A stretch of DNA of 60,035 nt from contig JAUCBJ010002294.1 of assembly GCA_032718475.1 (NCBI GenBank), positions 1 to 60,035 of the forward strand. Direction: 5' to 3'. Below, piece after piece: positions 28,397 through 58,837 of the stretch (within the stretch, counting starts at the first letter, position 1; each line of letters starts with the position of its first letter). This DNA comes from Nemertoderma westbladi (taxonomy: Eukaryota > Animalia > Xenacoelomorpha). The notes under the pieces were generated by a model. It did no database searches. It worked only from the letters and a program-made list of their open reading frames with translations, and had not been told where the DNA came from. The position numbers and the translations under genes were made by a program.

Positions 28397-28483
28397 CCAT
28401 GGAATACTTAACTAAATATATATATTTATTGATTGATTCTATATATTTGATTATTGATTGATTCTATATTTAGTATTCCATGG
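28397..28483. repeat. Small inverted repeat, probably an internally deleted MITE
   Basis: CCATGGAATACT...AAATATA pairs with TATATTTAGTATTCCATGG. Confidence 0.55.
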
Positions 28484-31412: not shown

Positions 31413-32115
31413 GTATGAACATAATGTTTGTTAATCTGTTACCTAGCTGTTCAACTAATTACTATATAATAATACTCCTACTGTATAGTATACACCATGA
31501 CCCGACTCCAAACATAATATGGAGAGGTTGTGATTATGCATTGTGGGGTTCTAATGCTATGGGGTCGGAAAACCACAGCAGCAATATGTTGGGTAATTCA
31601 GTAAGGAGCTTCGCGAAATTGTCGCCGGAGGCAGTTATGAAACTGAGGTATTGGTTATGGCTCCGGGTTTGGCCGCATGGTTATACATAGAATTCCAGAT
31701 CACATCGGCATCAACCAATCACCGCAGCCTCTCAAGTTGATCAACAAAAATTGTTAATTATACTTGTTGTGTTGGGATTATTCCTACGATTGGGCCAATA
31801 AAATAGCTAATTTAATTCAGTTAAAATTAACCATGACATTCTAAAGATAGATACTTTTAGTATAGGTCATGAATAAATTGTATTATTGGTCTGTCCTGCC
31901 TAAATTTGTAGTTAGAGTGTATAATTAATCATAGAGGTTGAGATGGCTTATGGTTAATATACACTACCCTTTCACTGAAGCGAGTGGTTAAAGTCCTAGG
32001 ACTGTAGGGTTGAGTAGTGGAAGGAGATGATGGTATTGACAGATGAGAGGCCATGAGGACGTAAATTGCGGACATACAAGGTATCTGGTAGTATTTCCAG
32101 GTTTATCTTTTACCT

Positions 32116-32190
32116 GAGCCGCTAACTGAATGGTAAGAGCGTCAGACTTCCAACCCGGAGGTCACCAGTTCGATCCCTCCTGGACGTCTT
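32116..32190 (+). mobile_element. tRNA-like SINE head or tRNA pseudogene
   Basis: A box TAACTGAATGG and B box AGTTCGATCC at tRNA spacing, but the acceptor and anticodon stems do not pair cleanly. Confidence 0.55.
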
Positions 32191-32699
32191 TGCCGACTTT
32201 GCAAAGCTGTTCCCAACGAAAGGTATAATTGATAAACTTATCATGCGATGTTAAGAACCCTAGATCAGTTATAATAAATGTATAATAACAAATTTTTGGT
32301 TGGCTCGGAGGTAGTCCGTTACATGCTTACATGCAGACGTTGGGCAGTAAGAAAAGTAAGAAACTTCCACTCAAAACGACGAGTTTAACTGTTCGACATT
32401 TATGTGGGTTTTATTGGTGGACACTAGTCAGGCCAGTCTGGCCCAAATGCACCCCGTGAGTTGTTGTCTGAATGATGCTGACTTTTATGGCATACATTTT
32501 GTATTAATATTCAATGTTTTTATTTCAATGTTTTCGTCTTGAAGTCTGAGTTTGATTTGTCTTAACATTATAAGCCTATCACAAATGAACCACCTAATAA
32601 TACCAGTATAGTGCATTGCCCAGACTTCATGTGCACTTCCAAAATACTGAAATTTAGTATTTGAAATTGTAATATTAAATAATACTATGCAGAGTATTG

Positions 32700-33230
32700 T
32701 GACCAAAATGAGCTCGTTGTTAACCTGCTTAAGACAAAAGCTATAAAATTCCCCAGTGGAGGCCGTCTCTCCCAGTATGATAAACACTTCTACAAGGGTC
32801 AGCCGGTAAAATTTGTTGGAATAAGTTTAACTACCTGGGAATCGTCTTCACAACAAAGAATGTCGACTCGGGTCAAAACATGCACTTATACAGTCCGAGG
32901 TATGGCATCAGTATTGCGACTATCAACTAATATGAGTGCTATGTCGCTCGTCTCGGCACACAAACTGTGGAATCTCGTAGTTTTCCCCGCGGTCACGTAC
33001 GGATGTTCTGTATTCAAGTTCAACAACAACAATTTAACACGGGAGCAAATTTTGCAACTTTCACATGTCATACAAGTCCGGGGCCTATTCTACAAAGTCT
33101 GGTGTGGAGTTGCGAAATATCCATCAACAACAAACATACTTGATGCAGTAGGCAACCCCGGCCACTCTAATTTAGACTTAAGGTACCTCGAGGCGAGGGA
33201 ATACGCTGTAAAATGGCAGCCCAGTTCTTA
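32700..33230 (+). mobile_element. Possible degenerate non-LTR reverse-transcriptase C-terminal remnant
   Basis: KLWNLVVFPAVTYGCSVF resembles the post-RT 'l....v.P.l.YG...w' motif of LINE ORF2. Confidence 0.4.
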
Positions 33231-35895: not shown

Positions 35896-36022
35896 CTGAA
35901 AAATGAAAATCAATCAAAATGTTATCACACAGGTAATAATTATTTTATTGCTAAACATTATATCGGTAACTATTAAACATAAACATATGTTAGAATACAT
36001 TATATATTAATCCTTTGCTTAA

Positions 36023-36410
36023 GGCCTGTTTACACGTGGCAACTTTTAGAGCAACTTTCTCGGCAACTAGCAACTTTTTTTTAGCAACTTAATTTAATCG
36101 CTGTTTACACGTGGCAACTTTACCAGCAACTTTACCAGCCACTTCGCCGACAACTTTTAGAGCAACTTGGCTAGTTTAATTGTAAAATAGTGGGTCATTT
36201 TATCTACTAGCTAGTTTTTGATAAGTTAATTTGATTATCCCGCAATAATTCGCCAACGCAAATTCCTTCAAGTTGCCGTAAAAGTTGAGCAACTTTTACT
36301 TTTACGGCAACTTTTTTACGTGTTTACACGGAGCAACTTGATCGGCAACCTGGGTTGCTCTACAAGTTGCCGAGAAAGTTGCTCTAAAAGTTGCCACGTG
36401 TAAACAGGCC
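36023..36410. mobile_element. PIF/Harbinger (Tourist-type) MITE, 388 bp
   Basis: Perfect 46-bp TIR GGCCTGTTTACACGTGGCAACTTTTAGAGCAACTTTCTCGGCAACT, TAA on both flanks, and many internal GCAACT motifs. Confidence 0.95.
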
Positions 36411-36489
36411 TAAACGGAACCAACGATAAATTATGTTGATTTTTCCTCTCAAGGACCAATATAAATAAATTTGATTGGAACAAAGATTA

Positions 36490-37460: not shown

Positions 37461-38374
37461 GGTGGGGGGGGGGGGGGGGGGGGGGGGGGGGTGTAGCATC
37501 CCCAAATTGAACCTTACATTTTTGTGTCTCTGGACCATAAAATTGGGTGAAAATTATATTACTTTTTGTGCTACTAAACATCGTCTGGACTGTGTGAGAA
37601 TAACTAAACCAAATTGGCTCCAAAATGGCTCCGTAATGGCCAAAAGTGCCTTTTTGCGCCAAGGGCTATTTCTCCACCAATATTTTGTTGAAATTTGTCG
37701 AAATTTGGAATATAAGTTCAGAAGAACCCTGCATCCAATTCTTCTGAACAAATTTTGCCTCAAATATTACTTTTTATAACAAAAAGGACCCAAAAAAGGG
37801 CCTTTTTTGGGCCTTTTTGATATAAAAAGGCTCCAGGGCATTTCAACCAAATTCGTTAAGAAGAAGTATGCAGAAGGGTAATTTTAACAAGTGCACCAAA
37901 ATTCAACTCATTTCAGTTAAAATTGGCGGAGAAATAGCATTTTTCATGAAAAAACGTCATTCTGAGATATGGGTGTTTAAAGTTTAAGGAACAATTCAAA
38001 CCTTCCCGCTAATGTAGATACAATTTTTCTATTGTCAACAATAACTTTGTCAAAAATGAATGAAATTCAACGAAATTTTTCATTCTTGCTAAACAGATAA
38101 CTAGTAAAACAACTTTCTACCAATTTCATTCATATCTATAGCGTGAGAGCCTTTTTTATGAAATGGGCCACGTACAATTGTAAAATATAGTGCTGCTTAA
38201 AGGCTTTTCTAAAATCAGACTATCTCTTACGTTTTGGGTAATAACTTGAGTTTGAGGAAAGATAAGAGAAAACTGCTTGCAGATTTGAAATTTCCATTAA
38301 ATTCGGCACGTGATAAAATAAAAGAACTTTATTGCCAATTTCCAAAATAGCAGGTGCTACCCCCCCTCCCCCCC
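37461..38374. mobile_element. Non-autonomous TTAA-targeting DNA transposon (Kolobok-like)
   Basis: TTAA|GGTG(n)TGTAGCA at the left end and TGCTACC(n)|TTAA at the right end. Confidence 0.6.
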
Positions 38375-40800: not shown

Positions 40801-41440
40801 TATACTTTATTTAATTGATTGATAAATAACAGATTAAAAATTAATTTAAAATTACATACTATTATTTAAGTAAAATATTTATACTTGTACAAAGAGATTG
40901 AAAAGGATTGAAAATATTTCATCACGACCGAGATTTTAACTCAAAAATTTCTGTTCTGAAATACAACGCCTTACACATTAGGCTATCTGTGACATATTGG
41001 AACGTTTGTTTCTCGCACCACGTAGTCAGCGAGCCTTGGCAAACGGTTCATATTTATAAACGTAAATTCTCACATCAAGCAGAGAGAACATTTATAAAAT
41101 TTCTAAAAGTGTGTAATTAACTTGCCCGTAATTAATTTGTCAAATTTATATTCCCCGATAATCACCTGTTTACATACAGGTAATTATCGGGTAATAATAA
41201 TTTTACAAATTAATTGATTCGAATTAAAAATCTGATTTATCTGGAACTTTAATACTAATATTTCCAAATGTATTTCTTTATATTATAGAAGAAAAGAGTT
41301 GAACCGATTGAGTGCGCCGAAGACACATCATCATCTCTTAATATCAGCTCTACGTCCTTCACCCATGATTGTTCCCTTGACGACGATTTGGAGCCGTAAT
41401 GGAAGCGTCGCCTACAAAGACCCGAAAAACCCTCTAACTC

Positions 41441-42651
41441 TGTTCGCGCTTTCAGACCTTTGGCAGTTTAACCCGCCAAATTATGATGTCTTCTAGATAT
41501 TAAATCGCTTTTTAGCCTACGACAAGTATTTGATTCACTACACTAGTCGAAACCAATCCGTGCGCGATCATTCACCCGCTGGTTATACCCGGGAGATTGG
41601 GTTCGACGGTTTAATCTTATTGCTATGTAAGCCTAATGTATTATTCGACTGACAGTATTATATAATCTCTGACAATATTATTCACCTTCGGGGAATATTA
41701 ACAGTTCCTTTAGGACGTGGCGCTCTATCTATATAAACAGAGTTATGACTTAAACTACTCACAACGATATGGTTTAGTTATAATTAACATATATGGCGCA
41801 TTCTTTAGGAAATGCTTCTTTAACAGACTCACTCATACACAATGCTGCACAATACTGCACACTAATCTGCCGATCTTCACTGATTTTAGTCACATATAAA
41901 AGGAACACAGACTGACTCATGTAGGGTCTATCAAATAACATTCGATTCACTTCAAACCACTTTAACATAAGTCACAATCGTTTATCTGTAACCTTTCTCT
42001 CTTACCTTCGGTATATCAAGAATATTGGGTTTCGGGGTTATTTATCGTTATTCCAAATATAATAATTCATCCACAAATATAATGAATAACCGACAGTAAA
42101 TAGCAGTATAAAACAACAACTGAACACTAATTGTTATGAGTTTGCAATGTTTCAGCAGTCAGTAGTATGCCGTGCGTCAGGCAGTTTGATGAGTTTGGTC
42201 GATATGCAGTTAAAGGATATATGTCCTTATAATTAAACCTACTAGTGTTGAGCTAAAAAGCAGAAAAGCACAAAACACTATAAAGCCGTTCTTTCGTGGC
42301 TTTGAAAAACTCGTGACTACGAGAATACCAACTACACTTATTCCACGAAGCTCCCGTTCAACACAGAGGATGAGCAGTGAGATAGGAAAATTTCAGTTCA
42401 GTAGCTCAGGATAGGTTAAAATCCAGGATAACTCAAATTCTATTGGGAGATACAAAAACAGGGCTATGACGCAACCCTCTTAGGCTGGTTGGCCGATTAA
42501 ACAGAGCCCAGATACCTGCGTACCGCAAATCAGCCAATAAGCTGGTAGCTTGCACTATTTTAACTATAGATCCCTTTTTGAGTATTCTAGCGACCGGGGG
42601 GGAACTGGCCAGCAAAGCAAACGAACCAGTTATCCCACAAAAGCTTTTACA
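41441..42651 (-). repeat. 3' LTR
   Basis: Direct repeat of 57627-58837 with about 11 substitutions seen by eye. Confidence 0.97.
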
Positions 42652-42660
42652 CCGCTCCCA
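42652..42660 (-). other. Short polypurine-tract-like sequence (TGGGAGCGG) abutting the 3' LTR
   Basis: Lies immediately 5' of the LTR TGT on the element strand; short and imperfect. Confidence 0.55.
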
Positions 42661-42729: not shown

Positions 42730-45700
42730 TTAGTCTTTCTTGCGCGGACGGCGTTTACGCAGTTTCTTGAGGCTAGCAAGAGTCCTTTTCTCTTTGGGGC
42801 GAGCCACTTTATGAGGAGGGCTGTAGCTCCTAGGCGAAGGGTGCAATACGATTGCATCAGAAGGTGTAGGATTACGATCGGTATACCCGCCGGTCGAAGT
42901 ACCTGGTTGATTAATATCAACCTCAGTGGAGCGAGGTCTAACGGCCTTTAGAGCGCGTCTCAGGACAGCAGCTCCCACGGGTCCTTGACGGGTCGTCTGG
43001 ACACTAGCGGTGGGTGGACCGTGAGTGGTGAGGAACTTTCTCGGTTTAATGGTTCTCTCCAGCTCGCGTTCTCGGGTTCGATATTCATATGGTCGCCGAG
43101 ATATTTCCTGTAGTTCAGGATGCGAGTTTACAAAGATGTCGCCATACTCAGGGTCCTGACGTATAAAATTGATCAGGTGATAGGTGGTTATATCATTAGG
43201 GTTGACGTTTCTAAGGTATTTTCTGACAAACTTGGTGGAAATACACTCACCAACACGCTTCATTAACTCGTAACTTGGTACGCGTGTTTTCTGTTCAATC
43301 GACGCGAATAGGTAAGGATGGAACGCGTAAACTCCCTCGTAAGCTCGTCCAGGGTAGTAGCGATGTCGGGATTCGCAATGTAAATCCGCATTCGCTTCCC
43401 AAGCTCGGATGTATCGCAGGGTGATCATCTCGTCTACGCTCTCTAAATCGCGATTAAAGGGACAATTATAACTTTCATGTCCTTTAAGTTGACAGTAGTG
43501 ACACTGAGTCATAAATTGTGGGCAGACAGCAAAAATATGAGAGTTATTAAGTCTGCAATAAGCACAATATATTTCCATCATCGGTTGTTCGAGGAAATAG
43601 GAGCAAGGTGCGTTGGAGTCGAGAGGGGTGAAGTGGTCTCTCGATGCGCATAATCGACAACGTTTTCGGGAAACGTAGTTGGCGTGTCGATAATCGTACG
43701 CTGTGAGACGTTGTGGACCTTGATACCACTCTATAACATAATCATTGTCACTGCTCCGGGAAGCTGTAGGCTGAATCGCTTCTGATTCCAAGCATACTGG
43801 CTCATCCTCCAACTGCATAGACGAAGTGGGTGCGTCTGTTTCCGTAAGTGGACCCACTGTTTGTATTTCCACGACAGAATATCCCGTAGGTATTCGAGGT
43901 CTTTGTATAACAGATGAATGTAAGTTCTGTATACAAACGTCTTGAAAAACGGCAAATCCAGCGCTACTCAGTTTCTCCGCAGCTGAGTCTCTCAGACTGA
44001 GTTTGGTCAGCGCGCGGTCCTTGAACTGACTATCGACGTTACGGAACGGAGTCAGAAAGCGCCGGAAACATTCGAAACGTATAAACTTATTGTGTTCGTC
44101 TAACTTGGCGAGTTTAGTTCCAAGTATTAATGGGTGAGCGCGTATGGTACGACTGCACACATCGGCTAGCCAACCGGCAAGTGCTGCGTTTTCAAAGATC
44201 GTGTATATAGCTAAGGAAGGACGAAGTGGAACACTCATAAAGCTATATACGGCACCAGGCGCAGTTAACGGTCCATCAAAATATAAACGAGAGTAATGAT
44301 CTCCATATACTTGCTGGTAATTGATAGGATTTCCAACTTTGAAATTCCAACCATATTCTTGAAAGGCAAGATGTCCGATGGATGTCCGTTGTACTTTAGT
44401 AATGCCGCTGGGTGTATTAGCATACATAGTGCGAAAGAAACCTCGGCCTTCGGCCCAAGGAGCAATCAGCTGAGTATCAACGAAAGGGTATGGAATGTTC
44501 TCCATATTCCGGAAGTCGTTTTGGAGATCTCCATAAACAGCTGAGCCGATTTTTAGAATTCTTTCGTTAAACAACATTTCGAGTACAGGTTGGGGTAACA
44601 TTGATCCATCGATACCCATGGCCGGTTTGCGCTCGGTGTCGGTGACGTAACGCTGCGCAAGCTCGAATTGTCCATGTCGAAGTTTCTTTTGTATCTCTGT
44701 AAGAGCTTCAAAAGAATAATCAATTACGTCGGAACACGCTCGAGTGAATACGTGGGTAGAACCAGCGAGTCCTCGTATATGTATCATTCGCGTAGTTCCT
44801 AGTTCTCCCACCGGAACGCTACCTTCGTTGTCATAAGTAACAACGCCATACATCTCGATAACGTTAAGAGTCTCGTTCCATTCTTTAGTGGCGTTTTCGA
44901 GAGTCATTCCCACTGGATGCCACAAAGTAGCGCACTCGTTAGCATTGGGTAAATCTCTATACTTTAAGCATTGTGTAGTATAGGTTTCCACATCTCCATA
45001 TCGTTTTATTCTTTCTTCCTCGAATAACACGTCAAGATTCCAGTGCACTAATCGAGTTTTAATGAATCCATCAAGATTGTACGGAGGTGATATTTCTTTC
45101 TCTATTCTAGAAATATTATACGGTTTTCGAAATGAGTTTAGTTTAACTAGCTGATCTAGATGTTTTTGTAGTTGTTCGAGTTCGACAAGATCGAGAGGAT
45201 TGATTAATGGTAGGAACCTCAGACTATGCGTAGGATCTTCCGGTTTCACCATGTAATATTGCTTCAAATTGACGTAATAAGGGTGATCCTTAATTCCATA
45301 AAATGAGTCCGGCAAAGGTCTAGCGCGTATGTTAACATCGTGCACCATGCGACGGACAAGATCCGCTCTATTGTCCGGAGGCTCAACAAGTACGCCATCG
45401 ACACGAGCAGCCTCGACGGGTGGACGTTGTAGCATGGGAGCGTCAGCAACGAGCTCGTGAGATCTGAGATCAGTATTAACCGGTTGAGGTTGTACCGTAG
45501 CAAAGAGCTTGTCTTTGAAATGAGGAACCATCGAGGGGTGGAGGATCGTTTTGGAATAGAGATCCGTCACGAGAATTTGAGCTTCTGGTTGAGCTAAAGC
45601 TGCTTCTTCCCTCTCAGTCAGCTCTATATGTCTTTCCTCGAGCTGATTTTCCTCCGCTTGTTGTTGCAAGCGCTCGTCCAGGAATTCCTGTAAAGAGTAG

Positions 45701-46983
45701 GTTCGTCCACGTTCGATGTCCTCCTCTAGATTTTGTATTTCTCTATCGAACTGGGGTAAAGCTAGTTCTTTCACCGCTTGGACTTGTTGTTGCAATTTAC
45801 GTTTCTCCAAGCAATCGTAAGTTCCTTTTCCGATTTTCTGCCGAATAGCGTCCAATGCATTTCGTATCACGCTCTCTTCGACTTCTGTAACAGGTTGGAT
45901 CGGAGGAAGGCCAGGACGGTTGTAGGGGTTAAACGGTGATATTAGATGACCGCGTCCTAGTCCAGCGAGGTAAGGTTGGCGAATATCCAACGAACCCACT
46001 ACCGGAGTGCCACCAATCAACTGTTCAGGTAACACTAGATCTTTGAACAGTGAGTACAGTTCGGGAGGATCCGTAATACTATTAGGGTCTAGAGTTTGAG
46101 GTATCACTTGTGAATGGGGAGGTCTGACCGAGTATTCCGGAACTCTGATCATGGGTTTATTCAATGATCGCTTAAGGCGCGCGACCGTAGGTGATACGTC
46201 GAAAAGGTTACGCTCGAAACTCCCATAAGTATATCGCGTAAAACTGTGTTTAGCGCAACGTCTCCGAGGATGTTTATGCCTTTCGATTTGCTGGTTAGGT
46301 CTAGGGCATTCGTCACAGTAATACCAAAGACGCACGTCTTGAAGGGGAAACGCGGGTGATCGCTCTCCAGTTTTACAATATTCCTCCATCTGTTCGAAGC
46401 TATCTGGAACGACAGGTAGCGGTCGATCGGCGGTAAGATACATCATCGTAAAATAGAGCCGTTTGAGTTCCATTATAGGATCTGGATGTATACCTTGAGG
46501 ATATCGAGTTTCGAGATTTTGTTGACTGGCAACATTGAGATAGGTCTCTCGTAAGAATTCTAGATAATCGTTGAAACCGTTACGTTTATCAGGTTCTTCA
46601 ACGTCTTCTCTTTCGAGTTTGTTTCGAATAGAGTTCTCGTGTTCTATTCTCGATTTATCGTTTCGACTCCGCTGGGTATGATATTTAAATAAAACCATTT
46701 CCCTTTCGGTGTCTACATCGTCCGTATCGTGTAAATCGATAGGGTGACCAGTAGTCAAGAAGTCCATATACGTACCATTACGATGCGTATAGCGAGCCGT
46801 GAACTTTCTATAATCCAATTCACGCGTAAGTTGCTCCTGGGACATTGGCGGTTCGATATAACGACCATCGTCCTCCGTAGTAGTTGGATCAGCGTCGCCG
46901 CGTATCAAGCTATCGACAAACGCTTGTAAAGGTAGAGTATATCTCTCCCTGATACCAAGATCATCTTCTATTAATTCAGTCAT
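42730..46983 (-). CDS. Accessory ORF3 of the retrotransposon, 1417 aa: coiled coil, DEDDy-like (RNase D/WRN-type) 3'-5' exonuclease, CCHC knuckles and basic tail
   Basis: Long intact ATG-initiated ORF between integrase and the 3' LTR. ExoI-like VVTYDNEG, ExoII-like ILKIGSAVYGDL, FVDTQLIA, ExoIII-like PLRPSLAIYTIFEN; CAYC..H..C and CHYC..GH..C; no signal peptide or membrane anchor is visible. Confidence 0.8.
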   Translation of the reverse strand: MTELIEDDLGIRERYTLPLQAFVDSLIRGDADPTTTEDDGRYIEPPMSQEQLTRELDYRKFTARYTHRNGTYMDFLTTGHPIDLHDTDDVDTEREMVLFKYHTQRSRNDKSRIEHENSIRNKLEREDVEEPDKRNGFNDYLEFLRETYLNVASQQNLETRYPQGIHPDPIMELKRLYFTMMYLTADRPLPVVPDSFEQMEEYCKTGERSPAFPLQDVRLWYYCDECPRPNQQIERHKHPRRRCAKHSFTRYTYGSFERNLFDVSPTVARLKRSLNKPMIRVPEYSVRPPHSQVIPQTLDPNSITDPPELYSLFKDLVLPEQLIGGTPVVGSLDIRQPYLAGLGRGHLISPFNPYNRPGLPPIQPVTEVEESVIRNALDAIRQKIGKGTYDCLEKRKLQQQVQAVKELALPQFDREIQNLEEDIERGRTYSLQEFLDERLQQQAEENQLEERHIELTEREEAALAQPEAQILVTDLYSKTILHPSMVPHFKDKLFATVQPQPVNTDLRSHELVADAPMLQRPPVEAARVDGVLVEPPDNRADLVRRMVHDVNIRARPLPDSFYGIKDHPYYVNLKQYYMVKPEDPTHSLRFLPLINPLDLVELEQLQKHLDQLVKLNSFRKPYNISRIEKEISPPYNLDGFIKTRLVHWNLDVLFEEERIKRYGDVETYTTQCLKYRDLPNANECATLWHPVGMTLENATKEWNETLNVIEMYGVVTYDNEGSVPVGELGTTRMIHIRGLAGSTHVFTRACSDVIDYSFEALTEIQKKLRHGQFELAQRYVTDTERKPAMGIDGSMLPQPVLEMLFNERILKIGSAVYGDLQNDFRNMENIPYPFVDTQLIAPWAEGRGFFRTMYANTPSGITKVQRTSIGHLAFQEYGWNFKVGNPINYQQVYGDHYSRLYFDGPLTAPGAVYSFMSVPLRPSLAIYTIFENAALAGWLADVCSRTIRAHPLILGTKLAKLDEHNKFIRFECFRRFLTPFRNVDSQFKDRALTKLSLRDSAAEKLSSAGFAVFQDVCIQNLHSSVIQRPRIPTGYSVVEIQTVGPLTETDAPTSSMQLEDEPVCLESEAIQPTASRSSDNDYVIEWYQGPQRLTAYDYRHANYVSRKRCRLCASRDHFTPLDSNAPCSYFLEQPMMEIYCAYCRLNNSHIFAVCPQFMTQCHYCQLKGHESYNCPFNRDLESVDEMITLRYIRAWEANADLHCESRHRYYPGRAYEGVYAFHPYLFASIEQKTRVPSYELMKRVGECISTKFVRKYLRNVNPNDITTYHLINFIRQDPEYGDIFVNSHPELQEISRRPYEYRTRERELERTIKPRKFLTTHGPPTASVQTTRQGPVGAAVLRRALKAVRPRSTEVDINQPGTSTGGYTDRNPTPSDAIVLHPSPRSYSPPHKVARPKEKRTLASLKKLRKRRPRKKD

Positions 46984-48633
46984 ATCTGCTATACGAGTTC
47001 ACCAATATTATAATGAGTTTATATATCGTTAGGCGAGCGGGCGTCGCTGCCTATTTCTCCCTTGCCCCCGGACAGTAAGAGATTCTCAGCGCCGATGTAC
47101 CGCTGTAGCTGTACTTTCGCCAACGACGTAGCTGTACAACGACAACGATAACCGGCACAAGTCACTCCACTGTCCGTCCCAAAGGCTTAGATGTACTTCA
47201 GGTTTTCCTTGGAGAGTTAGGTTACTTTTACGATTGCGACTAGCTACTGTAAACACACTTTAGCAGTAACATTCACCTATAAACTCACAAATACCACACA
47301 ACTTGTCACAACTACACACATTCGGGCCATTTGTCCGTTAGTCAATGCCTTCCAGAATGTCACTGTATTGTTATGTATCCTTGGATACTAGCAGTGCGCT
47401 ATTTATTCCCTATGCTATTCAATGGGACAAGCTTTCTATTGTTCTTTTTACTCAATTCTAATTCTAGCGTGGTTGTTGCTATGGTGACATTATGCAAAGC
47501 TAGCGGTAGAATTAGGGTAATTCCAATGCATACAGATCTGGGATGTTATTTAATAGTAATTCTTTAATAGTCAATGTCCTGTTTTATACATGACTTTATG
47601 AATTTTATCGGCTATTGACTATGTTTGGGAGACTTTCGTACACGCATACGCATAATAATATAAATCTCCGCTCCCTTGATCTATTAATTAATGGAATTTT
47701 GGGAATGTTATAAATTGCGTAAAATGGCAATTTATTAAATTCATTAAAAGACATGAATTTAAATTTATTCCCTGAAATTTTATTATTTGATAATTAAATG
47801 GACATATTTTGATTCTAGAACATGTCTAGGGACACAAGATCCTTAATTCTAAGAAAATTGTCTCTTTAAGAATATCGGTAAATGCTACGATATCTTAATT
47901 GACTAGAATTGTTGAAGGATCTGAATTTTACAGATTTTGACTTATTTGATTTGTAAATATTAACTAATTAATATTTGAGATGGGCACCGATTTATTCCAG
48001 AACTTGTCTGGGGACGTTAACCACTGATTCTATAATTTGTCTTTCAAGTATATCGGTGGGTGCCACGATATCTTAATCGACTAGAATTACAGATGGTCAA
48101 AGGGTTTAACAGATTTATTTTGCGTTATACGCTACTGTTAAAGGGACATCACGCTACTATATGTATTATTTAATATACGGTATGAGAGCAATATCGCACG
48201 AAGCAATGTCAGTGTGAAGAGGCAAGTCGTTTCCAAGGTCTACCCAGAGCTTGGTTTAGCCGAGACACGAGGATCTGAACTTTGCATTCCTAATACTCTG
48301 CCTACCAATAATACTTGAATATAGTAGTGGCTTTATTGTACTTTAATAAGTACGGACATTTCATCTTACTGTAGTTACGTATTTATAATATAATACGGAC
48401 AGTAAGGAAAGAGAAAAATAATTATTTCTTCGCCGTCGCACTAAATATAATATAAGTAATTACGTACGTAATAAACACGAATATATTGCACTATTCTACT
48501 AAATAATCGCTAAATAATATTCTACTAAATTAAATAAAACGATTATAATAAAATTACATAGTAATACATACATAAATATAAAAATAATAAAATAATATAA
48601 AATAATAGAGTCACACGCCCACTCCGAACGATA

Positions 48634-50433
48634 TTAAGTTGGGGAGTCCCTAGATGTCGGTTGGATTAGGGAAGTGGTCGTGGGAAGAGTTTCTTGCCTT
48701 CCATAGTTTCCGGAGAGCTCTCTGTCTCTTTCCAGTAAACATAAACGACCCACTGGGCGATTGAGCTGTTGAGTCTCAAAGACTATCCCTGGTTTCTTAA
48801 AGTTCCGCCGCATGACGACGAGCTCTACTGATCGCACCAAACCATCGCTCGAGATATAAGTCTCGATGATACGTCCTGTTTGCCATCGCTTACGTGGGAG
48901 ATCGGGGTCCACAATAAGCACCATGTCTCCAGCGCTGACGTTTTCTTGCTGCGCAAACCACTTAGTTCGAAGTTGTAGAGTGGGCAGGTAATGTTTCTCG
49001 AAATGGTCAGCGAAACGACGGGATAGCAACTGCATAAGTTGCCAGGTTCGACGGCAGTACTCGTCTCCGTCTGTGATCTCCGATCGTGGGAGCATGGCTA
49101 CGGGCTTCTTCAGTAGAAAGTGCGCGGGTGTTAGCGCTTCCAGGGAATCAGGATTTGAAGAGACTGGCATAAGCGGTCTTTCGTTGAGATAGGCGGCGAT
49201 TTCCTCCATTAACGTCCGCAATAGTTCGTCGGTGAGATAAGCGCGACAAGGCACAATAAAGTGGAACGCAGTCTTCACGCTCCTAATCAATCTCTCCCAA
49301 CTTCCTCCCCACCAAGGGGCGTCGGCGGCGTTGAAGGTCCAGCTAGACGCTGTTATCCTTAGCTGATCGTCCACCTGTCTTTTGTTCCAGTCCTTTACGT
49401 AAGCTTGAATTTCGTTGTTGGCGCCAATGAAGTTCGTTCCCTTATCCGATCTCATCGTGTTACTGGTTCCGAAGCGAGCGATCTGTCGTCGTAAACTCAA
49501 CACGAAGCTGTTGGTGGATAGATCGTTTACCATATCGAGATGGATAGCTCTACAAGTCATACAAACGAAGATGACACACCATCTCTTGACTATAGTCCGG
49601 GCACGATATACTTCAATAGGGCCAAATAAATCCACACCGGTATTAGTAAAGGGTGGTTCATAGAAGCTTACTCTTTCCCTAGGTAATTCTGCCTCTCGCT
49701 GTGTTAAAGGCCTACTGAATGCTTTCCTACAGGGTATGCAGTTCCTAAGAACTTGGTTCAGAGCCCTACGAGGTTTATAAAAATAGTAGCGAGTTCGAAT
49801 TTCGCTCAGAACTCGTTCTCTACCAGCATGATACAGTTTGCTATGAACATCTACAATTATCTTGATTTGTATGTCAAGATTTCTAATAAGTATGGGAAAC
49901 TTAGTGTCAAAGGATAATGGGGCGTTTGTTAGCCGACCTCCAACACGTATTAACCCATCTATCATGGTACTAGAGAAGCGATCCCTTAAGCGCATCTGTG
50001 GATTTCTTAACAACAGGAAATACTTATCGGAATCCTCATAGCATTGTAGGAGTCTCAGCATCTGTTTGTTGGTTTCATCATGCTCATGGTAACTGATCTT
50101 TTCCTTTAGAAACCTGTCGGGTATCTTGTACTTAGGAAGATCTTTAACAACATGGACTCGTGCAGATGTTGATGGAGCCTCATCACTATTGGTCTTTGTC
50201 CCGGAGTAACGATGATGAAAACATCGTTTCAAATAAGTGACAGCTTTACAGAGCCGATTCCAGGAACTGTAGTGACGTATCGCTCTCTGCAAGAGAGGTG
50301 AGAGTCCTTGCGCGATATCTGGTATTCCAGATTTCCAATCCTTGTCACGGATTTCCAAGACTTCTTTGGTCGTGGCGGTGGGTTTCTGATCTAAAGCATC
50401 CTGCTCCGGAAGTAAATAATACAGATAGATCAA
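48634..50433 (-). CDS. BEL/Pao integrase (in a different frame from gag-pol)
   Basis: HHCC motif (HSKLYH...CIPC), catalytic GVDLFGP / SDKGTNF / WERLIRSVK, LTPAHFL and the BEL C-terminal DGLVRSVEL...RPVGRLCLL. Confidence 0.93.
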   Translation of the reverse strand: MIYLYYLLPEQDALDQKPTATTKEVLEIRDKDWKSGIPDIAQGLSPLLQRAIRHYSSWNRLCKAVTYLKRCFHHRYSGTKTNSDEAPSTSARVHVVKDLPKYKIPDRFLKEKISYHEHDETNKQMLRLLQCYEDSDKYFLLLRNPQMRLRDRFSSTMIDGLIRVGGRLTNAPLSFDTKFPILIRNLDIQIKIIVDVHSKLYHAGRERVLSEIRTRYYFYKPRRALNQVLRNCIPCRKAFSRPLTQREAELPRERVSFYEPPFTNTGVDLFGPIEVYRARTIVKRWCVIFVCMTCRAIHLDMVNDLSTNSFVLSLRRQIARFGTSNTMRSDKGTNFIGANNEIQAYVKDWNKRQVDDQLRITASSWTFNAADAPWWGGSWERLIRSVKTAFHFIVPCRAYLTDELLRTLMEEIAAYLNERPLMPVSSNPDSLEALTPAHFLLKKPVAMLPRSEITDGDEYCRRTWQLMQLLSRRFADHFEKHYLPTLQLRTKWFAQQENVSAGDMVLIVDPDLPRKRWQTGRIIETYISSDGLVRSVELVVMRRNFKKPGIVFETQQLNRPVGRLCLLERDRELSGNYGRQETLPTTTSLIQPTSRDSPT

Positions 50434-53400
50434 CCGCAGGTTTAAACAACTTCGATTTACTCGCTCGAGTTTTGGGTTTAACTTTCTCCGCTCCCTTGGC
50501 CTGTCTGATCTCTGCTGTTGTGAGGTGGGGAGGCCATTCTTCTTCTTCTTGGTAGAGAAAGTCGGGTCCTCCTAACCATTCGGGAGTATTTACCAATTCC
50601 TTTGGAGTCGCTCCTCGGGAAGCGATGTCTGCTGGATTAATCGTTCCGGGGCAATGTCTCCATTGGTCCATCGTCGTGCGACTAAGTATGATGGCTACCC
50701 TGTTGGTAACGAAGACGCTGAACTGACAGACTTCATTGGTTATATACTCTAACACGAGTAAAGCGTCGGTCCAATAGACAGTTTTCTCTAATGGATAGTC
50801 AATCTGTTCTGTTACATTCCGGCCGATGGCTGTAGCGTATAGAGCCGCCTTTAACTCCGCTCGAGGAACTTTCAACTTGTTGTTGATTAATGCCTTAGAA
50901 GTAACCAAGGCGACTTTGATTCCATCCGGAGTTTCCACTCTTAGGTAGGCTACTATACCTATTCCCATATCGCTGGCGTCTCCAAACACATGGAGTTGAT
51001 AGGAATACGTAGGGAGAACATGACCAAAATATGAACGGGAAATTATAAAATCCTCGATCGCCGGTAGAGAATCTTCCCATTTCATCCACTTCTTTAATAA
51101 TTCTCCCTTAAGTGGATCGTCCCATGAGTGGTTTTCAAGCCACATTTGTTGCACCAAACTACGAGCAATCAATATAACTGGGCTAATAAATCCCAATGGA
51201 TCGAAATAAGTGCTCAGTATACTTAAGCAAATCCGTTTGGTTCGAACTGGATTATCTCGCTGTTTTAGTTGGAAAAACAGGATATCTCTCTCTGTGTCCC
51301 ATTTCAAGCCGAGTGTCTTGGTTTCTGGCAGATCATCTTTGATCAAATCGAGATCTTTCGCTCCTCGATCCTCCGCAGGGATCGACTCCAGAAACTCACG
51401 GGAGTTGCTGGTGAATTTCGTTAATCGAAACCCACCTCTTTTTAAGCACTCTACCGTTCCTTTAGCGACCTCAATGGCTTCCTCAACTGATGGAAGGGAC
51501 TTCAGATTGTCGTCCATGTATATGTCTCGCTTGATGTTGTCGATCACTTCCTTAGAGAAGGCCTCTCGGTTGTCCTCTGCAGTGGTACGCACTACCGAAC
51601 AGGCGTTGGAAGGGCTTGAGATTATCCCAAAGGCCTGGATGGTCATCCAGTACTCCACCGGTTTCTGGTTGAGGTCTCCTTCGGGCCACCATAGAAATCG
51701 TAAGCTATCTCGATCCCTATCCAACACTTTGACTTGCAAGAACATGCCTTCTATATCGGAGGCGAAAGCAATCGAATATTGTCTCAATCTTAAAAGAATT
51801 CCCAACAAAGATTGAAGTAAGTTGGGTCCGGGTAACAATTCAGAGTTAAGGGATTGACCCATGTAAAGAGCGGAGCCATCAAACACTACTCTCACTTCAT
51901 TGGGTTTACCGGGTTTAGGAACGTAATGGTGAGTTAAATAATACGTTCTTTCAGTCACAGGTGTTTCTTCCGGTACCCTCTCCGCGTATCCCTTATTAAT
52001 AAATTTTTCCAGCTGTGTTTGATACATTGCTTTAGCTGAAGAATTAGCCGTAAGGCGTCGATGGAGTTGCGCGATTCTTTTTTCCGCCAAAGGTCTGTTA
52101 TTGATGAACTTCGGTTCTTTCTTGCGAAAAGGTAAACCGACTTCATACCTACCTTGATCTTTGATGAAACGTGTAGTTGTCTCTTGGATCTGCTTGGCCC
52201 TTTCCTCTTCCACTGATAAGGCCTTATCGTAGGAATTGGGCTCTACTGCCTCTTGCGTAAAGAATCGTACAGCATGTTCATCTCGAGTCTTGGCATTACA
52301 ACGCTCAATGGCGTCATTTAACTCGTCGTTATAAGCTTCTCGTTCAGATGGATAAAGAAGTTGACATAAGTTAACTTGGTTTTGCCAAGCCTCGTTTTCC
52401 TTAAGGAGATCGATAGTATTCTCCTCATCAAAGAGCTGGTGAATGTCGTCGTTATCTGAGGAGTATGGAGTTCCCTCAGTTAAATCGTCTCCTTCACTAG
52501 TATCATCTTCCCATTCACTCACCTGGCAAACTCGCTCTTGCGGTAGTCTTTCTCTGAGTGTTCTACGGGAAGGTCCAGTAAAGTACCAACCTACTCTAGT
52601 TCTTACCGCATAGGTCTGTAGTGGCTGCGGTTGAGCAGGCCGTTTCTCTAATGTCTCCAGCGCCTCATGCGCGTTTTGGCCGATGAGTATTTGCACTCCA
52701 GGATAATCAGTCTGAAATCGAGGTATGTTAAGATGTTGGATGCTCTCATCCTCGTCCCAATTATAAAGGTCTGCTTGGGTAGTAGCGAAGTTCTTTATAG
52801 CTACCATTTTCACTGACCTGATGCTATGTTCTCCTAGTTCGTCCTGGGGGGTGGACAACGCTCCTACATAATAATCCGCTGTTATTGTGGATTTCCAGAC
52901 TTGCATAATGCCTGACATGTTTAGCGTAGTTCGGAACTTGGGTTGTCCAGCAAATATGTCTTCGGCTAGCTCTTGGTCGATGAATGTTCCTGTACTACCG
53001 GAGTCAAGGAGGGCGTTCACTACGTAACTCCGTTTAGGTCCGTGAACCCTTACCTGTACCACAGGAAACTCTCGGATCCCTACATTGGAAGATGGCTCTT
53101 TCCCAGATGGTTGTCGCTCAGAAGTAGTTAGAGTGAGGTCGCTGTCTGTATCTTTTTCATATGTGAGTGCTCGATACACTGCGGTATTTATCAGGTAACA
53201 GGATTCGTTTTCGTCGGAGAACTCATCCGTATAGAATCCTTCCATCTCAGATTGGTCAGTGTCGTTCACATCACTGAATTGGACATGTAGTTCGGAATCA
53301 CTTACCTGATTCGGAGTATTTCGCTCGAATTCAGCGTGCAACAAGATATGATGTTTCGCACCACACTTAGCACACCTTATGTCAGAGAAACAGGTTCGCC

Positions 53401-55420
53401 GTTGGTGTCCTTGTCTGAGGCAATTATAACATAACCGCTTATCCCACATGACTTCGCGTCTCTCAGTTAATGATTTCTTCAGGAATTCATCACACATGTT
53501 CAAACGGTGGGTCCCGTCACACAGCGCACATTTCGGTTTGATGTTACTCACCTTATTCTGAGTCACATTGTGTACACTTGCTTTTTCTTCGGGCTTTCTC
53601 ACCTGAATTCTCTTGGGAGACGTAGGAGGAGTTTTTCTTACCTGTTCTCTCCTGTCATTTGTTCGAGACTTGAATTTACTCACCTGATCTTTAGGCATTT
53701 TATTCACGTAATAAGATCTATCAGTGTCCTTCCCGCTATCTTCTCCTTGAGAAGTCTGGCTTTCGCCGTCGTCTGTGTAACACACTGGTGTTACCCTTCT
53801 CCTAGAGACGGGTTTTTCACTTACCTTGTTTTCCGGTGTCTTCTCTCTGGATTGCTTGAGGAGTTGCAATTTCACTTCTCCATCCAGGAATGACATGAGA
53901 TCTGCCATGGTAGGGTCTCGTCGTTGTTGTTCCATCATATATAGTACTTTCTTATCCCAGCGTGTGCCTACCCCACCTTTCGGTAAAGTAGAAGCCACAG
54001 CTCCAATGACCATAGAACTTTGGTATTCATGAGACTTACCTAACCAATCTAATTGTCTACAGATCTCTTGAATCTCATCGGAAAACTCTATTATCCCACT
54101 GCTGATGAACTTTCTGGGCGCTACTAATTTTGCATATAAATACTTAGCGATATTATTCCTATTACCATACCTGATGTTTAGTGTATCCCAAACTTGTCTT
54201 AATCCGTCTGGATGTCCAATAAACTTTAACGCCATTAACTTGGGAGATCTTTCCAAGCACTCGATGAGGAACCTAAGTTTCTCTCCATTAGACAGTACAG
54301 AGTTCTGTATGTTATCTTTGTAATATTCATTAAAAGGTAACCATTTCATCTCATCTCCATTGAACTTGACGATCTCTCCCACCTTTACCGCTTGCCGGGC
54401 TTCGGTTCTAGCCATTTGACGCGTAAAACTTTCTTGGGCCATCGTGTTATTTAATATCGAGTTATCGGTATATAAATTTCTCGGATTATGATCCGATCTA
54501 TAGGGAATATCATTATCAACAGGTCTATAATTACCCTTAATAGGGTTCACTATAGGAGTTTCTACTTCGCTAGCAGTATAGATGCGTGTAGGCTCCACAC
54601 CTTGCGCATGAGATACTTCAGACCTAACGGGTTGACACATTGTTACAGGGGGTGGTGGTATACCCCTTTGCGTATTTACTAATTTATCGCGCTCTAGCGC
54701 GATACTTTGCTGCACTTCTTGCAACTCTAGTCTACTTTCCCTTACCGTGCCCTTAAATTGCTGGACAGTCTCCTGCATCTGCCCGAGCAGGATATCCATC
54801 CCCCGTCGTCTCTCGTCCACCCATTCGACCGCCGAAGCGGGAGTCGCCAACGATGTAGCGGGCGGACGAGGGACAACGGGCGACAAATTATGAATATTTC
54901 GCTCGGGGTCCAGGACCTGAACTGTCTCCTGGGCAGTTCTACGGGGCACAGGTAGCTTAGTGCTATGCAGAGGGAATTTAGCGGTTACTTCAGGGAGCAC
55001 AGGTGTGTCTATCACAGTAGGGGTGATTTCAAGAACAGGCCTAATTATTTCAGGCTCATCTACTATAGTAGGGAGTCTTTCGATTTTAATTATTTGGTCT
55101 GTGGGTTCTGTACTACCTAAATTGGTGCTATTTAGTTGCCTTCTAACAGCTGGAGGCAGATCAGGCAATTTCTGACGGTGGAATGTTCTTTTACGTCTAC
55201 TTAGACGAGATCTATTTCCCTTGCCTTCATTGTCGGTGGTATCGCCTTCCTCAGATGATGTATATCCCTGTCTTTTGGGAGTAGATCGATTCATCATCTG
55301 CATATTACTAGCTGTTAACTGTTTGTTTATGCAGTCTTGATTCTCTTGAATGTTTTCCAATTCTAATTGGTTGGTTTCTTCAGCCGCTCTCCGTTCTGCT
55401 TCTACCACTGCCACCGCCAC
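50345..55420 (-). CDS. BEL/Pao Gag-protease-RT-RNase H polyprotein (first ATG at 55303)
   Basis: Gag FNGD..KW..F...EKLRFL, three BEL knuckles (CALC..H..C, CYNC..GH..C, CAKC..HH..LH), protease ALLDSGS, RT YMDD, RNase H LHVFGDAS...PRAEL...NPADIASRG. Confidence 0.95.
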   Translation of the reverse strand: MAVAVVEAERRAAEETNQLELENIQENQDCINKQLTASNMQMMNRSTPKRQGYTSSEEGDTTDNEGKGNRSRLSRRKRTFHRQKLPDLPPAVRRQLNSTNLGSTEPTDQIIKIERLPTIVDEPEIIRPVLEITPTVIDTPVLPEVTAKFPLHSTKLPVPRRTAQETVQVLDPERNIHNLSPVVPRPPATSLATPASAVEWVDERRRGMDILLGQMQETVQQFKGTVRESRLELQEVQQSIALERDKLVNTQRGIPPPPVTMCQPVRSEVSHAQGVEPTRIYTASEVETPIVNPIKGNYRPVDNDIPYRSDHNPRNLYTDNSILNNTMAQESFTRQMARTEARQAVKVGEIVKFNGDEMKWLPFNEYYKDNIQNSVLSNGEKLRFLIECLERSPKLMALKFIGHPDGLRQVWDTLNIRYGNRNNIAKYLYAKLVAPRKFISSGIIEFSDEIQEICRQLDWLGKSHEYQSSMVIGAVASTLPKGGVGTRWDKKVLYMMEQQRRDPTMADLMSFLDGEVKLQLLKQSREKTPENKVSEKPVSRRRVTPVCYTDDGESQTSQGEDSGKDTDRSYYVNKMPKDQVSKFKSRTNDRREQVRKTPPTSPKRIQVRKPEEKASVHNVTQNKVSNIKPKCALCDGTHRLNMCDEFLKKSLTERREVMWDKRLCYNCLRQGHQRRTCFSDIRCAKCGAKHHILLHAEFERNTPNQVSDSELHVQFSDVNDTDQSEMEGFYTDEFSDENESCYLINTAVYRALTYEKDTDSDLTLTTSERQPSGKEPSSNVGIREFPVVQVRVHGPKRSYVVNALLDSGSTGTFIDQELAEDIFAGQPKFRTTLNMSGIMQVWKSTITADYYVGALSTPQDELGEHSIRSVKMVAIKNFATTQADLYNWDEDESIQHLNIPRFQTDYPGVQILIGQNAHEALETLEKRPAQPQPLQTYAVRTRVGWYFTGPSRRTLRERLPQERVCQVSEWEDDTSEGDDLTEGTPYSSDNDDIHQLFDEENTIDLLKENEAWQNQVNLCQLLYPSEREAYNDELNDAIERCNAKTRDEHAVRFFTQEAVEPNSYDKALSVEEERAKQIQETTTRFIKDQGRYEVGLPFRKKEPKFINNRPLAEKRIAQLHRRLTANSSAKAMYQTQLEKFINKGYAERVPEETPVTERTYYLTHHYVPKPGKPNEVRVVFDGSALYMGQSLNSELLPGPNLLQSLLGILLRLRQYSIAFASDIEGMFLQVKVLDRDRDSLRFLWWPEGDLNQKPVEYWMTIQAFGIISSPSNACSVVRTTAEDNREAFSKEVIDNIKRDIYMDDNLKSLPSVEEAIEVAKGTVECLKRGGFRLTKFTSNSREFLESIPAEDRGAKDLDLIKDDLPETKTLGLKWDTERDILFFQLKQRDNPVRTKRICLSILSTYFDPLGFISPVILIARSLVQQMWLENHSWDDPLKGELLKKWMKWEDSLPAIEDFIISRSYFGHVLPTYSYQLHVFGDASDMGIGIVAYLRVETPDGIKVALVTSKALINNKLKVPRAELKAALYATAIGRNVTEQIDYPLEKTVYWTDALLVLEYITNEVCQFSVFVTNRVAIILSRTTMDQWRHCPGTINPADIASRGATPKELVNTPEWLGGPDFLYQEEEEWPPHLTTAEIRQAKGAEKVKPKTRASKSKLFKPAVDLSVLFTSGAGCFRSETHRHDQRSLGNP

Positions 55421-56781
55421 TGCCGCCGTTGAATACCTACTGCTATATTACAGTCTAAGCAAGTCTAGTAATTCAGTATTAACTGCTAGCCTAGTAATTA
55501 ATTACCGATATTGCTACTCAATGTAGAGTGATATATATAATATATTAGAATACCGGTATGCTTATATTATATATAAGTATTATCACAGACTAGGTTTATC
55601 TCAGAATACCGGTATAATTTTAGCACAAATATATATAAATATATAATAGGCCTATCGGGAATACCGGTATACAGCTTACAGTTTGTAGTATATATAATTC
55701 TGGACTAGAATTAATTATAAGTACCGGTATAATTTCAGCCTAAATTTACAGAAATAAAGATAATAGGCCTATCGTAAATACCGGTATATCAATTATTTTA
55801 AATAATTGAATTTCTGTACTTTAGGGTTACTTGGTTACTCTACTTACTTTATTACCGTTATTTGAGCAGTAGTCCAACTGATATTGAGACCTAATGGTTG
55901 TATGGTAGGCCTACTATTTATAAATCGTTAGATTTGATTTATAATATATATATACCCGTTTAATGGGTTTTGTCAATGTTTGAAATAAATGTTATTATTT
56001 CTGGGGGGTAATCACTGCACAAAGCGGTACGCTTTCAGTGAAGTGTTACTTATAAGACACTAAAACAAATAATGCTAATTGACCTAAGTTACTTATACTA
56101 CAAATTACGTACGATTCGGGTTGAGATTACAATCTCTAAATAAACACAAAAATTTACAAAAACACAAATACGAATTTTTAGGGTAATTTTACAAGAAGTC
56201 TACAAACCAGCCTAACAAAGGGTTAGAAAATCTGGTTATTACAATGGACAGGGTACTACGGTATTTGAAAATAATAAGTAGTAGTAAATACACTGCGTTG
56301 TCTAGATAGGAAAATACCACCGCCTGACGACCTATAGCCGTATCGCTATAGGTTCTACGTTATGTATCACGGAGTGTTCCTACCTAGAAGCTAATAGAGC
56401 TAATCGAAGGTGCCTATCAACCACTTTACAACACAAATATAATGCCTACAATAATTACTTTCGGAAAGCACTGTACACTAAACCCTAAATTAGGTACGAG
56501 TACTTGTACAACAGATAATCAGTAGTTAAATATACTTGAACAGCTAAAAGAACCACGGCATCTGCTGGAGTAACCGGTGCACAAAATCACCAGTCTTTAC
56601 CTACGCCTAGCAGCCCGTGTAGTACTGGGGTTAATTTAACTATAACGGTATGTATAACAAACACAATTACTGTAGGAACAAACTTGGGGAATGAATGTTG
56701 CGGATAATCGCATAAACTCTGAATAATAAATATTACGCAACGCGTACAAACTACTTAAACAAAATGCAGACCAAATACCGA

Positions 56782-57293
56782 CAGACTACTATCAAGCCTA
56801 AACAAACTACGGTATATGCAGACTCTGAAATAATTAGGTAGTATGCGTTCTAACCCAGTAGTACGACTTATTCTTTAATTGGGGGTTTACCTTACAGCAT
56901 TCGCTGCCCCTACTTCCTAACCGTTCTTTATCGGACAAGTGATCTACACACGCTGCAATCCGTTCAGACCCAACAACAGCCAGACAACTATCCAGCCTAC
57001 AAATTATCTAAATAAAATTATACGCTACCTGTACAGACTTACACAAACAAAGTACAGACTAAACGATGGCAGACTACTCTCAAGCCTAAATAAACCACAG
57101 GACATGCAGACTCCGAAATGATTAGGGAGTATGCGTTCTAACCCAGTAGTACGACTTATTCTTTAATTGGGGGTTTACCTTACAGCATTCGCTGCCCCTA
57201 CTTCCTAACCGTACTTAATCGGACAGGTGCTCTACACACACTGTAATCCGTTCAGACTTAACAGCAATCAGACAACAGCTCGGCCTACAAATT
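56782..57293. repeat. Direct duplication (period 288 bp) in the retrotransposon 5' leader
   Basis: 56782-57005 is similar to 57070-57293, with a long identical core AGTATGCGTTCTAACCCAG...CTTCCTAACCGT. Confidence 0.9.
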
Positions 57294-57614
57294 GTCTGTA
57301 CAATCAGATCAGGCTTACACGTCTTCTGTTCAATACTGGCCTACAAACAAATAAAACTTGACAGAAATAAGTAAAATCTCAATAAAAACCAGGGCGGCCG
57401 TTCCCTGATTAAGTACTAAGACCTACAGGTATACAACAATCAAATCGAATAATACTAATGTACTTATACGGGAAGTACCGGTTAGGACAGTTAGGCCTAT
57501 GGACCTACAGAAGTACCGGTTCTTGCAATTGGGCCTACTGACCTACAGATATACCGTTCAGGTTTACCGGTTGACCGGTATTTTCAACCTTATTGCTTAC
57601 TGCAATAAAGAAGC

Positions 57615-57626
57615 TATATCCTTTAA
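57615..57626 (-). other. Non-tRNA primer-binding-site position, complementary to an LTR-internal 12-mer
   Basis: The element strand reads ...GAACA|TTAAAGGATATA; the LTR element strand contains TATATCCTTTAA (58407-58396 and 42221-42210). Confidence 0.7.
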
Positions 57627-58837
57627 TGTTCGCGCTTTCAGACCTTTGGCAGTTTAACCCGCCAAATTATGATGTCTTCTAGATATTAAATCGCTTTTTA
57701 GCCTACGACAAGTATTTGATTCACTACACTAGTCGAAACCAATCCGTGCGCGATCATTCACCCGCTGGTTATACCCGGGAGATTGGGTTCGACGGTTTAA
57801 TCTTATTGCTATGTAAGCCTAATGTATTATTCGACTGACAGTATTATATAATCTCTGACAATATTATTCACCTTTGGGGAATATTAACAGTTCCTTTAGG
57901 ACGTGGCGCTCTATCTATATAAACAGAGTTATGACTTAAACTACTCACAACGATATGGCTTAATTATAATTAACATATATGGCGCATTCTTTAGGAAATG
58001 CTTCTTTAACAGACTCACTCATACACAATGCTGCACAATACTGCACACTAATCTGCCGATCTTCACTGATTTTAGTCACATATAAAAGGAACACAGACTG
58101 ACTCATGTAGGGTCTATCAAATAACATTCGATTCACTTCAAACCACTTTAACATAAGTCACAATCGTTTATCTGTAACCTTTCTCTCTTACCTTCGGTAT
58201 ATCAAGAATATTGGGTTTCGGGGTTGTTTCTCGTTATTCCAAATATAATAATTCATCCACAAATATAATGAATAACCGACAGTAAATAGCAGTATAAAAC
58301 AACAACTGAACATTAATTATTATGAGTTTGCAATGTTTCAGCAGTCAGTAGTATGCCGTGCGTCAGGCAGTTTGATGAGTTTGGTCGATATGCAGTTAAA
58401 GGATATATGTCCTTATAATTAAACCTACTAGTGTTGAGCTAAAAAGCAGAAAAGCACAAAACACTATAAAGCCGTTCTTTCGTGGCTTTGAAAAACTCGT
58501 GACTACGAGAATACCAACTACACTTATTCCACGAAGCTCCCGTTCAACACAGAGGATGAGCAGTGAGATAGGAAAATTTCAGTTCAGTAGCTCAGGATAG
58601 GTTAAAATCCAGGATAACTCAAATTCTATTGGGAGATACAAAAACAGGGCTATGACGCAACCCTCTTAGGCTGGTTGGCCGATTAAACAGAGCCCAGATA
58701 ACTGCGTACCGCAAATCAGCCAATGAGCTGATAGCTTGCACTATTTTAACTATAGATCCCTTTTTGAGTATTCCAGCGACCGGGGGGGAACTGGCCAGCA
58801 AAGCAAACGAACCAGTTATCCCACAAAAGCTTTTACA
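57627..58837 (-). repeat. 5' LTR
   Basis: Direct repeat of 41441-42651; located upstream of gag on the minus strand. Confidence 0.97.

Follow-up and report, generated by a model that had tools for sequence, protein, structure and literature searches.

The primer of the retrotransposon Tf1 is the 5′ segment of its own mRNA, 11 nt in length. Among BEL/Pao elements, Cer7 of Caenorhabditis elegans reportedly encodes its own primer RNA, CerP1, which is said to be a separate tRNA-like RNA. The passages on Tf1 and Tf2 of Schizosaccharomyces pombe, Tj1 and the Tf1/sushi chromoviruses in PMC4600332 and PMC5341516 place the primer-binding site (PBS) just past the LTR, where it is complementary to the R region of the same element; in Tf1 and Tf2 the self-primer is cleaved off by the reverse transcriptase (RT). 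The part of PMC6317226 on which we draw calls elements including Tcn1 and TAR self-primed when a complement of at least 10 nt starts 0–5 nt past the LTR. In the ICTV description of the Belpaoviridae (PMC8742986) the PBS is 18 nt long and matches host tRNA-Arg or tRNA-Gly, and the genome measures 4.2–10 kb; the family is described as tRNA-primed and its replication as poorly understood. No report of self-priming or of splice-built primers in BEL/Pao was found in searches of the open-access literature, and a term search of the main texts of PMC554778, PMC3118150, PMC6238403, PMC8220671, PMC3601003, PMC5443660 and PMC3286476 returned no such passage; in several of them, on BEL/Pao or annelids, the terms led to nothing on how BEL/Pao elements are primed.

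The window analysed here, a stretch of 60,035 nt from Nemertoderma westbladi, contains a full-length LTR element of 17,397 bp on the minus strand, running from 58837 to 41441 (Table 1). As in Tf1-type elements its PBS adjoins the LTR and complements a segment of that LTR, but those elements are Ty3/gypsy chromoviruses whereas this one belongs to the BEL/Pao superfamily. The Tf1 primer is the 5′ segment of the mRNA, while that of the window element probably lies within the leader, ∼770 nt away from the LTR end; in most relatives of the element, unlike Tf1-type elements, the primer is interrupted by an intron. Unlike the Cer7 and CerP1 pair, no tRNA-like gene was found in the window. The pairing falls within the limits for self-priming used in PMC6317226, having at least 10 nt of complement to the element's own LTR within 0–5 nt of the LTR end; the plant elements treated there are of other superfamilies, and the part of that paper drawn on mentions no primer intron. 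The domain set and its order, the LTRs, the polypurine tract and the optional third gene are those of the ICTV description of BEL/Pao (Semotivirus), from which the element differs in the absence of a tRNA-type PBS and in its length, 17.4 kb against 4.2–10 kb (PMC8742986).

We consider that this BEL/Pao element, with no tRNA-type PBS and a PBS that is the exact 12-base complement of its own LTR, is likely to prime with a folded-back piece of its own RNA (probability about 0.68). Self-priming by element RNA, be it in cis or in trans, is highly probable.

Architecture of the element and its primer-binding site

The two LTRs are 99.1% identical, with TG...CA ends, and the same 5-bp target duplication is present on both flanks, as befits a BEL/Pao element. 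The element is young. Pfam identifies DUF1759, Peptidase_A17, Integrase_H2C2 and DUF5641 (E-values 8e-36, 1e-9, 1.5e-19 and 1.7e-7), in the order PR-RT-RH-IN that places the element in BEL/Pao, and the nearest proteins bear the same Pfam families. These domains are BEL/Pao-specific, and the pol is not of the Ty3/gypsy type that membership of the Tf1/sushi chromoviruses would require. The 18-nt tRNA-type PBS of the ICTV description is absent, which leaves the protein-based placement unaffected. The integrase frame overlaps the upstream gag-pol frame by 227 nt in a different frame, either by a programmed shift or by a break. The third ORF gave no Pfam or PDB match and no likeness to known env in these searches, and its residues 700–1260 have no database homologue. 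The leader between the PBS and the first frame is unusually long, ∼2.2 kb (55447–57614), and contains a 288-nt spaced duplication (56718–57297).

Table 1. Coordinates of the element and its candidate priming signals in the window
Feature	Position	Strand	Remarks
5′ LTR	57627..58837	-	TG...CA; 1,211 bp
Acceptor-like pyrimidine tract ending TAG	58439..58460	-	31 nt upstream of the 12-mer
LTR island conserved across host copies	58390..58437	-	ends few bases past the 12-mer
Putative self-primer 12-mer	58396..58407	-	LTR positions 431-442; exact PBS complement; repeated at 42210-42221 in the 3′ LTR
Putative primer-binding site	57615..57626	-	adjoins 5′ LTR end; without TGG
gag-protease-RT-RNase H frame	50345..55447	-	DUF1759, Peptidase_A17; YMDD motif in translation
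Integrase frame	48634..50571	-	Integrase_H2C2, DUF5641
Third ORF	42730..46998	-	1,422 codons stop to stop; three Cys/His knuckle-like motifs
Short G-rich tract before 3′ LTR	42652..42659	-	resembles polypurine tracts of relatives
Best donor-like site upstream of acceptor	42510..42518	-	LTR position 137; 7/9 consensus positions
3′ LTR	41441..42651	-	1,211 bp; 11 mismatches against 5′ LTR; 5-bp target duplication on flanks

Reading along the element strand, the first 12 bases past the 5′ LTR (57626–57615) are the exact reverse complement of LTR positions 431–442. The match begins at the LTR end itself (offset 0) and ends at 12 nt, and TGG is absent from the first 8 bases. A PBS without TGG and an exact 12-mer complement in both LTRs had been described in the first-pass annotation, and are confirmed by these coordinates and offset. 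Its estimate that chance would give such a match less than once in 1000 also holds, since 7 of 20,000 dinucleotide shuffles of the LTR reproduce it at offset 0, and 18 of 20,000 at any offset from 0 to 5. Just two of the 14,964 internal 12-mers have a complement in the LTR, one of them being the PBS itself, and the PBS matches 34 foreign LTRs over at most 9 nt. A single match of this kind is too weak to survive a genome-wide scan; it is the relatives on which the case rests.

Own-LTR complementarity and putative split primers among relatives

Relatives were collected by an alignment-based scan, in which the best 80 among 505 metagenome hits yielded 79 loci and genome contigs supplied a further 7. 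Grouping at 80% amino-acid identity, with the window included, gave 52 families, of which 35 could be scored, the other 17 having no usable LTR or PBS. The scored relatives share ∼34–45% RT identity with the window element. Even the nearest proteins reach only ∼44% identity; those with a named source are mostly of cnidarians, echinoderms and molluscs. No relatives were found in viral contigs, and the exact LTR/PBS junction of the window is absent from the metagenome contigs. Seven of the loci (L080–L086) are BEL/Pao elements in prokaryotic MAG contigs, most likely through contamination with animal host DNA.

The PBS is complementary to the LTR of the same element over 10–15 nt, starting 0–5 nt from the LTR end, in 34 of the 35 families, window included. 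The PBS 10-mers of the 35 families comprise 33 distinct sequences, and TGG is absent from the first 8 bases past the LTR in every family. Where the LTR end is fixed by a direct repeat, all families (12/12) match their own LTR, over 10–14 nt; for L068 the end was fixed through the family members L069 and L073. For the other 23 of 35, the LTR end was placed by eye, close to the match, and is thus less independent. A blind search of 18 such by-eye loci placed the best hit at the expected position in 16, L051 and L031 scoring higher elsewhere. The LTR of L051 also contains a 19-nt perfect inverted repeat (6404–6620), in addition to its 12-nt primer match. The apparent LTR ends of L075 and L080 proved to be contig overlaps and these loci were rescored with the ends reset, whereupon the match of L075 went from 7 to 11 nt. 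The one miss, L038, whose LTR and PBS come from two loci, reaches 9 nt only, and L069 matches over just 6 nt in its 3′ LTR copy.

Control pairings reach 10 nt far less often. Cross-paired LTRs and PBSs do so in 12 of 182 pairs and, in a larger set, in 32 of 400, and windows taken downstream do so in 13 of 280. When only contiguous hits and hits with GTRAG or GTATG donors are counted, the families' own pairs give 33/35 against 3/400 for cross pairs. Each of duplex positions 3–10 is occupied by three or four Watson–Crick pair types across 27 rows (that of L014 being set one base off, its corrected core measuring 13 nt), so that complementarity is kept while the sequence changes. The 3′ end of the primer is mostly AC, and ends in C in 22 of 27 rows, but is AA in the window. 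In 19 of the 27 an AATAAA or ATTAAA signal stands in the LTR after the primer.

The match is contiguous in nine families, including that of the window. In the remaining 25 of the 34 matching families (35 scored) it appears only after removal of a GT-AG intron from the LTR. These introns are 66–1,022 nt long, and the split primers take 3–8 nt from the first exon and 4–10 nt from the second. Although the search required only GT..AG, own spliced hits fall on GTRAG or GTATG donors in 10 of 11 cases, against 7/113 and 5/165 in the nulls. An exactly intron-less junction was found in one of 20 families checked, that of L065, whose 5′ copy is joined while the 3′ copy retains a 117-nt intron (the library type is not stated). 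The window 12-mer, by comparison, lies uninterrupted in the LTR and spans no splice junction. The window element is one contiguous-primer form of the lineage; the usual, intron-split form is the more surprising of the two.

A quick tree was built from 29 rows; being unrooted and lacking any tRNA-primed outgroup, it gives no direction of change. Contiguous and spliced types are interspersed upon it, with six changes, of which strongly supported branches force four. The window element sits on a long branch within five spliced and two contiguous rows, a placement that is unsure.

The check for covariation proposed in the first-pass annotation is thus passed, 34 of 35 families matching their own LTR with differing sequences. 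Of its reading as self-priming, the geometry is strongly supported; invention of the trait by this element is not, for a putative self-primer is common to a broad set of marine-animal BEL/Pao families. The trait is lineage-wide, and self-priming, likely on these comparisons, would be inherited rather than invented by the window element. Independence from the self-priming of Tf1 is plausible at the level of the superfamily.

Proposed route of priming and its alternatives

Transcription would begin within the 5′ LTR at a point upstream of the 12-mer, with probable removal of the LTR intron ending at 58439. The 12-mer is then predicted to fold back onto the PBS that it complements. By analogy with Tf1 and Tf2, RT/RNase H would cut just 3′ of the duplex to free a 3′-OH, from which minus-strand DNA would start at the LTR end, copy U5 and the part of R downstream of the cut, and jump to the 3′ LTR. 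The AATAAA or ATTAAA signal after the primer, seen in 19/27 rows, would leave R homology for this jump. In most relatives the LTR intron visibly splits the primer, so that splicing would build it. Strong-stop DNA would end at the cut; the splice joint would therefore never be copied, and the intron could be inherited from the unspliced 3′ LTR. Splicing of the 3′ copy would yield contiguous primers. In each retroviral cycle the primer serves as template for a new PBS, and the same here would explain why each PBS tracks a spliced sequence. We lean towards a broader reading in which a widespread animal BEL/Pao lineage has wholly dispensed with tRNA priming and relies on the host spliceosome to join two LTR exons into its primer. 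Replication would thereby be coupled to 5′ LTR splicing, with the intron handed down by the 3′ LTR, and the window element would be a derived member whose primer, no longer across the junction, lies 31 nt past it.

The covariation is equally well accounted for if the primer acts in trans, as a short RNA transcribed from a solo or 3′ LTR, and spliced in most relatives, that is packaged alongside the genome and anneals to the PBS, making a fold-back of the genomic RNA unnecessary. Such a primer fits the data almost as well as one in cis. It gives a simple account of intron retention and escapes the folding penalty of longer leaders, and the AATAAA or ATTAAA signals of the 19 rows make short LTR-contained transcripts possible. 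A precise 3′ end at the primer is still required, and the joined form of L065 lies in a 5′ copy that runs directly on into the PBS and the internal region, which fits priming in cis unless the assembly is chimeric. On balance we regard a trans primer as unlikely. It is distinctly improbable that this pairing, though genuine and under selection, has its role in RNA folding, in packaging or in masking the PBS while a host RNA fragment acts as primer. Belpaoviridae are indeed given by ICTV as host-tRNA-primed (PMC8742986), and half-tRNA primers without TGG are noted for Ty1/copia in the relevant part of PMC6317226. Yet the 33 PBS 10-mers of the 35 families would each require a different host RNA, no tRNA or Rfam family reaches gathering score within the element, and the duplex always starts 0–5 nt past the LTR, the point at which a primer has to finish, with an AC-biased 3′ end. 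Over the whole window there is no tRNA gene, and Rfam gave two hits, both below gathering score.

The 12-mer could alternatively lie in U3, right after a TATA box, so that the RNA lacks it at its 5′ end and draws its primer from the 3′ LTR copy. A TATA-like hexamer does stand 10 nt upstream; if real, it would place the start of transcription beyond the primer. In some host contigs it is nearer to consensus through an additional base at 58412. A start ∼30 nt past the hexamer would, however, fall where the host copies diverge, and among relatives the distance from a TATA-like motif to the primer varies from 10 to 234 nt where one is found, so that we give this arrangement very little weight. A chance match in an AT-rich LTR is the hardest to credit. 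Many elements were scanned and, with splicing allowed, the 1.2-kb window LTR reaches at least 10 nt against 4 of 34 foreign PBSs; against this, the window match is contiguous, at offset 0, conserved in host copies and repeated across the lineage, its PBS stops at 9 nt or fewer with the 34 foreign LTRs, and the cross-pair and downstream-window nulls largely refute the chance reading.

If self-priming operates in a large part of the Belpaoviridae, a mechanism shown only in Tf1-type elements reaches a third LTR superfamily. A splice-built primer, if true, would connect RNA processing with reverse transcription in a new way: host splicing could gate transposition, and the survival of an intron in an LTR would be explained. 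The reading predicts that PBS-based annotation misses such elements, and for each family it makes a sharp prediction, naming both the splice junction and the cut site.

The LTR island, the leader and the surrounding sequence

Copies in the host were surveyed as assembled contigs of the runs X1, X3 and X5 aligned to the LTR, with depths that are summed and do not give copy number. Contigs of all three pile up on an island at ∼58390–58437. In X1 the summed depth peaks over 58402–58431, with a maximum of 530,048 at 58414–58419, and is only 13,663–32,963 at 58456–58480; there is none at 58330–58383, which is partly an edge effect, as a longer stretch gave depth in the 58298–58358 bin. Between 58390 and 58434 no substitution of at least 1% is listed, and the only difference is the extra base at 58412. 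Divergent host copies depart from the alignment at 58389–58397, and four joints in host contigs skip 90–110 nt directly past the 12-mer. The 12-mer is the downstream edge of this conserved block. None of the host-contig differences listed (40 of 194 rows) falls in either 12-mer.

At its upstream end the island starts right after the TAG-ending pyrimidine tract at 58439, and similar tracts are seen by eye in the loose ends of divergent host contigs. The donor-like site at LTR position 137 is present in the 3′ LTR and altered in the 5′ LTR; the 3′ form agrees with nearly all the host contig depth there. A 263-nt LTR intron upstream of the window primer is therefore possible, judged from these signals. 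A Tf1-like start site at ∼58407, as first proposed, is probably wrong, because the island begins ∼30 nt further upstream and the primer of relatives is usually within the leader. The window 12-mer probably lies inside the leader too, 31 nt past the acceptor-like site, and self-priming does not need a start at 58407.

Energy predictions for the leader are equivocal. The primer:PBS helix has a predicted probability of 0.945 when the RNA starts at the 12-mer, dominates for starts within ∼10 nt of it, and falls to 0 for starts at 58438 or further upstream. Forcing the helix costs 3–5 kcal/mol for starts at 58423–58438 or further upstream, folds of 800 nt being unreliable. The upstream part of the island is predicted to lengthen the duplex beyond the PBS, an effect that is marginal (3.7% of shuffles are as stable) and not general in relatives, where z<-2 in 4 of 27 rows, one being the L014 row set one base off. 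The local hairpin predicted across the 12-mer has little stability (-3.4 kcal/mol) and carries no weight in long folds.

Several further signals lie nearby. An identical 11-nt stretch that includes the TATA-like hexamer stands just upstream of the primer in the window (58408–58418) and in L065 (∼7003–7013); the two are far apart on the tree, and the common stretch is either chance or a shared signal. A strong donor-like site lies in the LTR downstream of the primer at 58191 (-) and, by eye, an acceptor-like tract directly past the PBS at 57599 (-), between which splicing would remove the PBS from the mRNA; more acceptor-like sites lie at 56670, 56212 and 56001. Trans-splicing is unsupported, no clear acceptor-like pattern being seen by eye before host start codons.

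Outside the element, a complex tandem array at 580–2470 has a 15-nt unit with a 171-nt higher-order spacing and is open in several frames. Imperfect palindromes or inverted repeats at 41130–41215, 35997–36436 and 37665–37938 are possibly remnants of small DNA transposons, and the first of these gave a sub-threshold hit to a miRNA family. The host genes at 7916–35913 are closely spaced and mostly single long ORFs, encoding a Slit-like protein (1,500 aa), INTS8 (840 aa), IFT52 (431 aa) and an alpha/beta hydrolase. The layout is that of an intron-poor, divergent animal genome, with IFT52 at most 57% identical among the matches listed.
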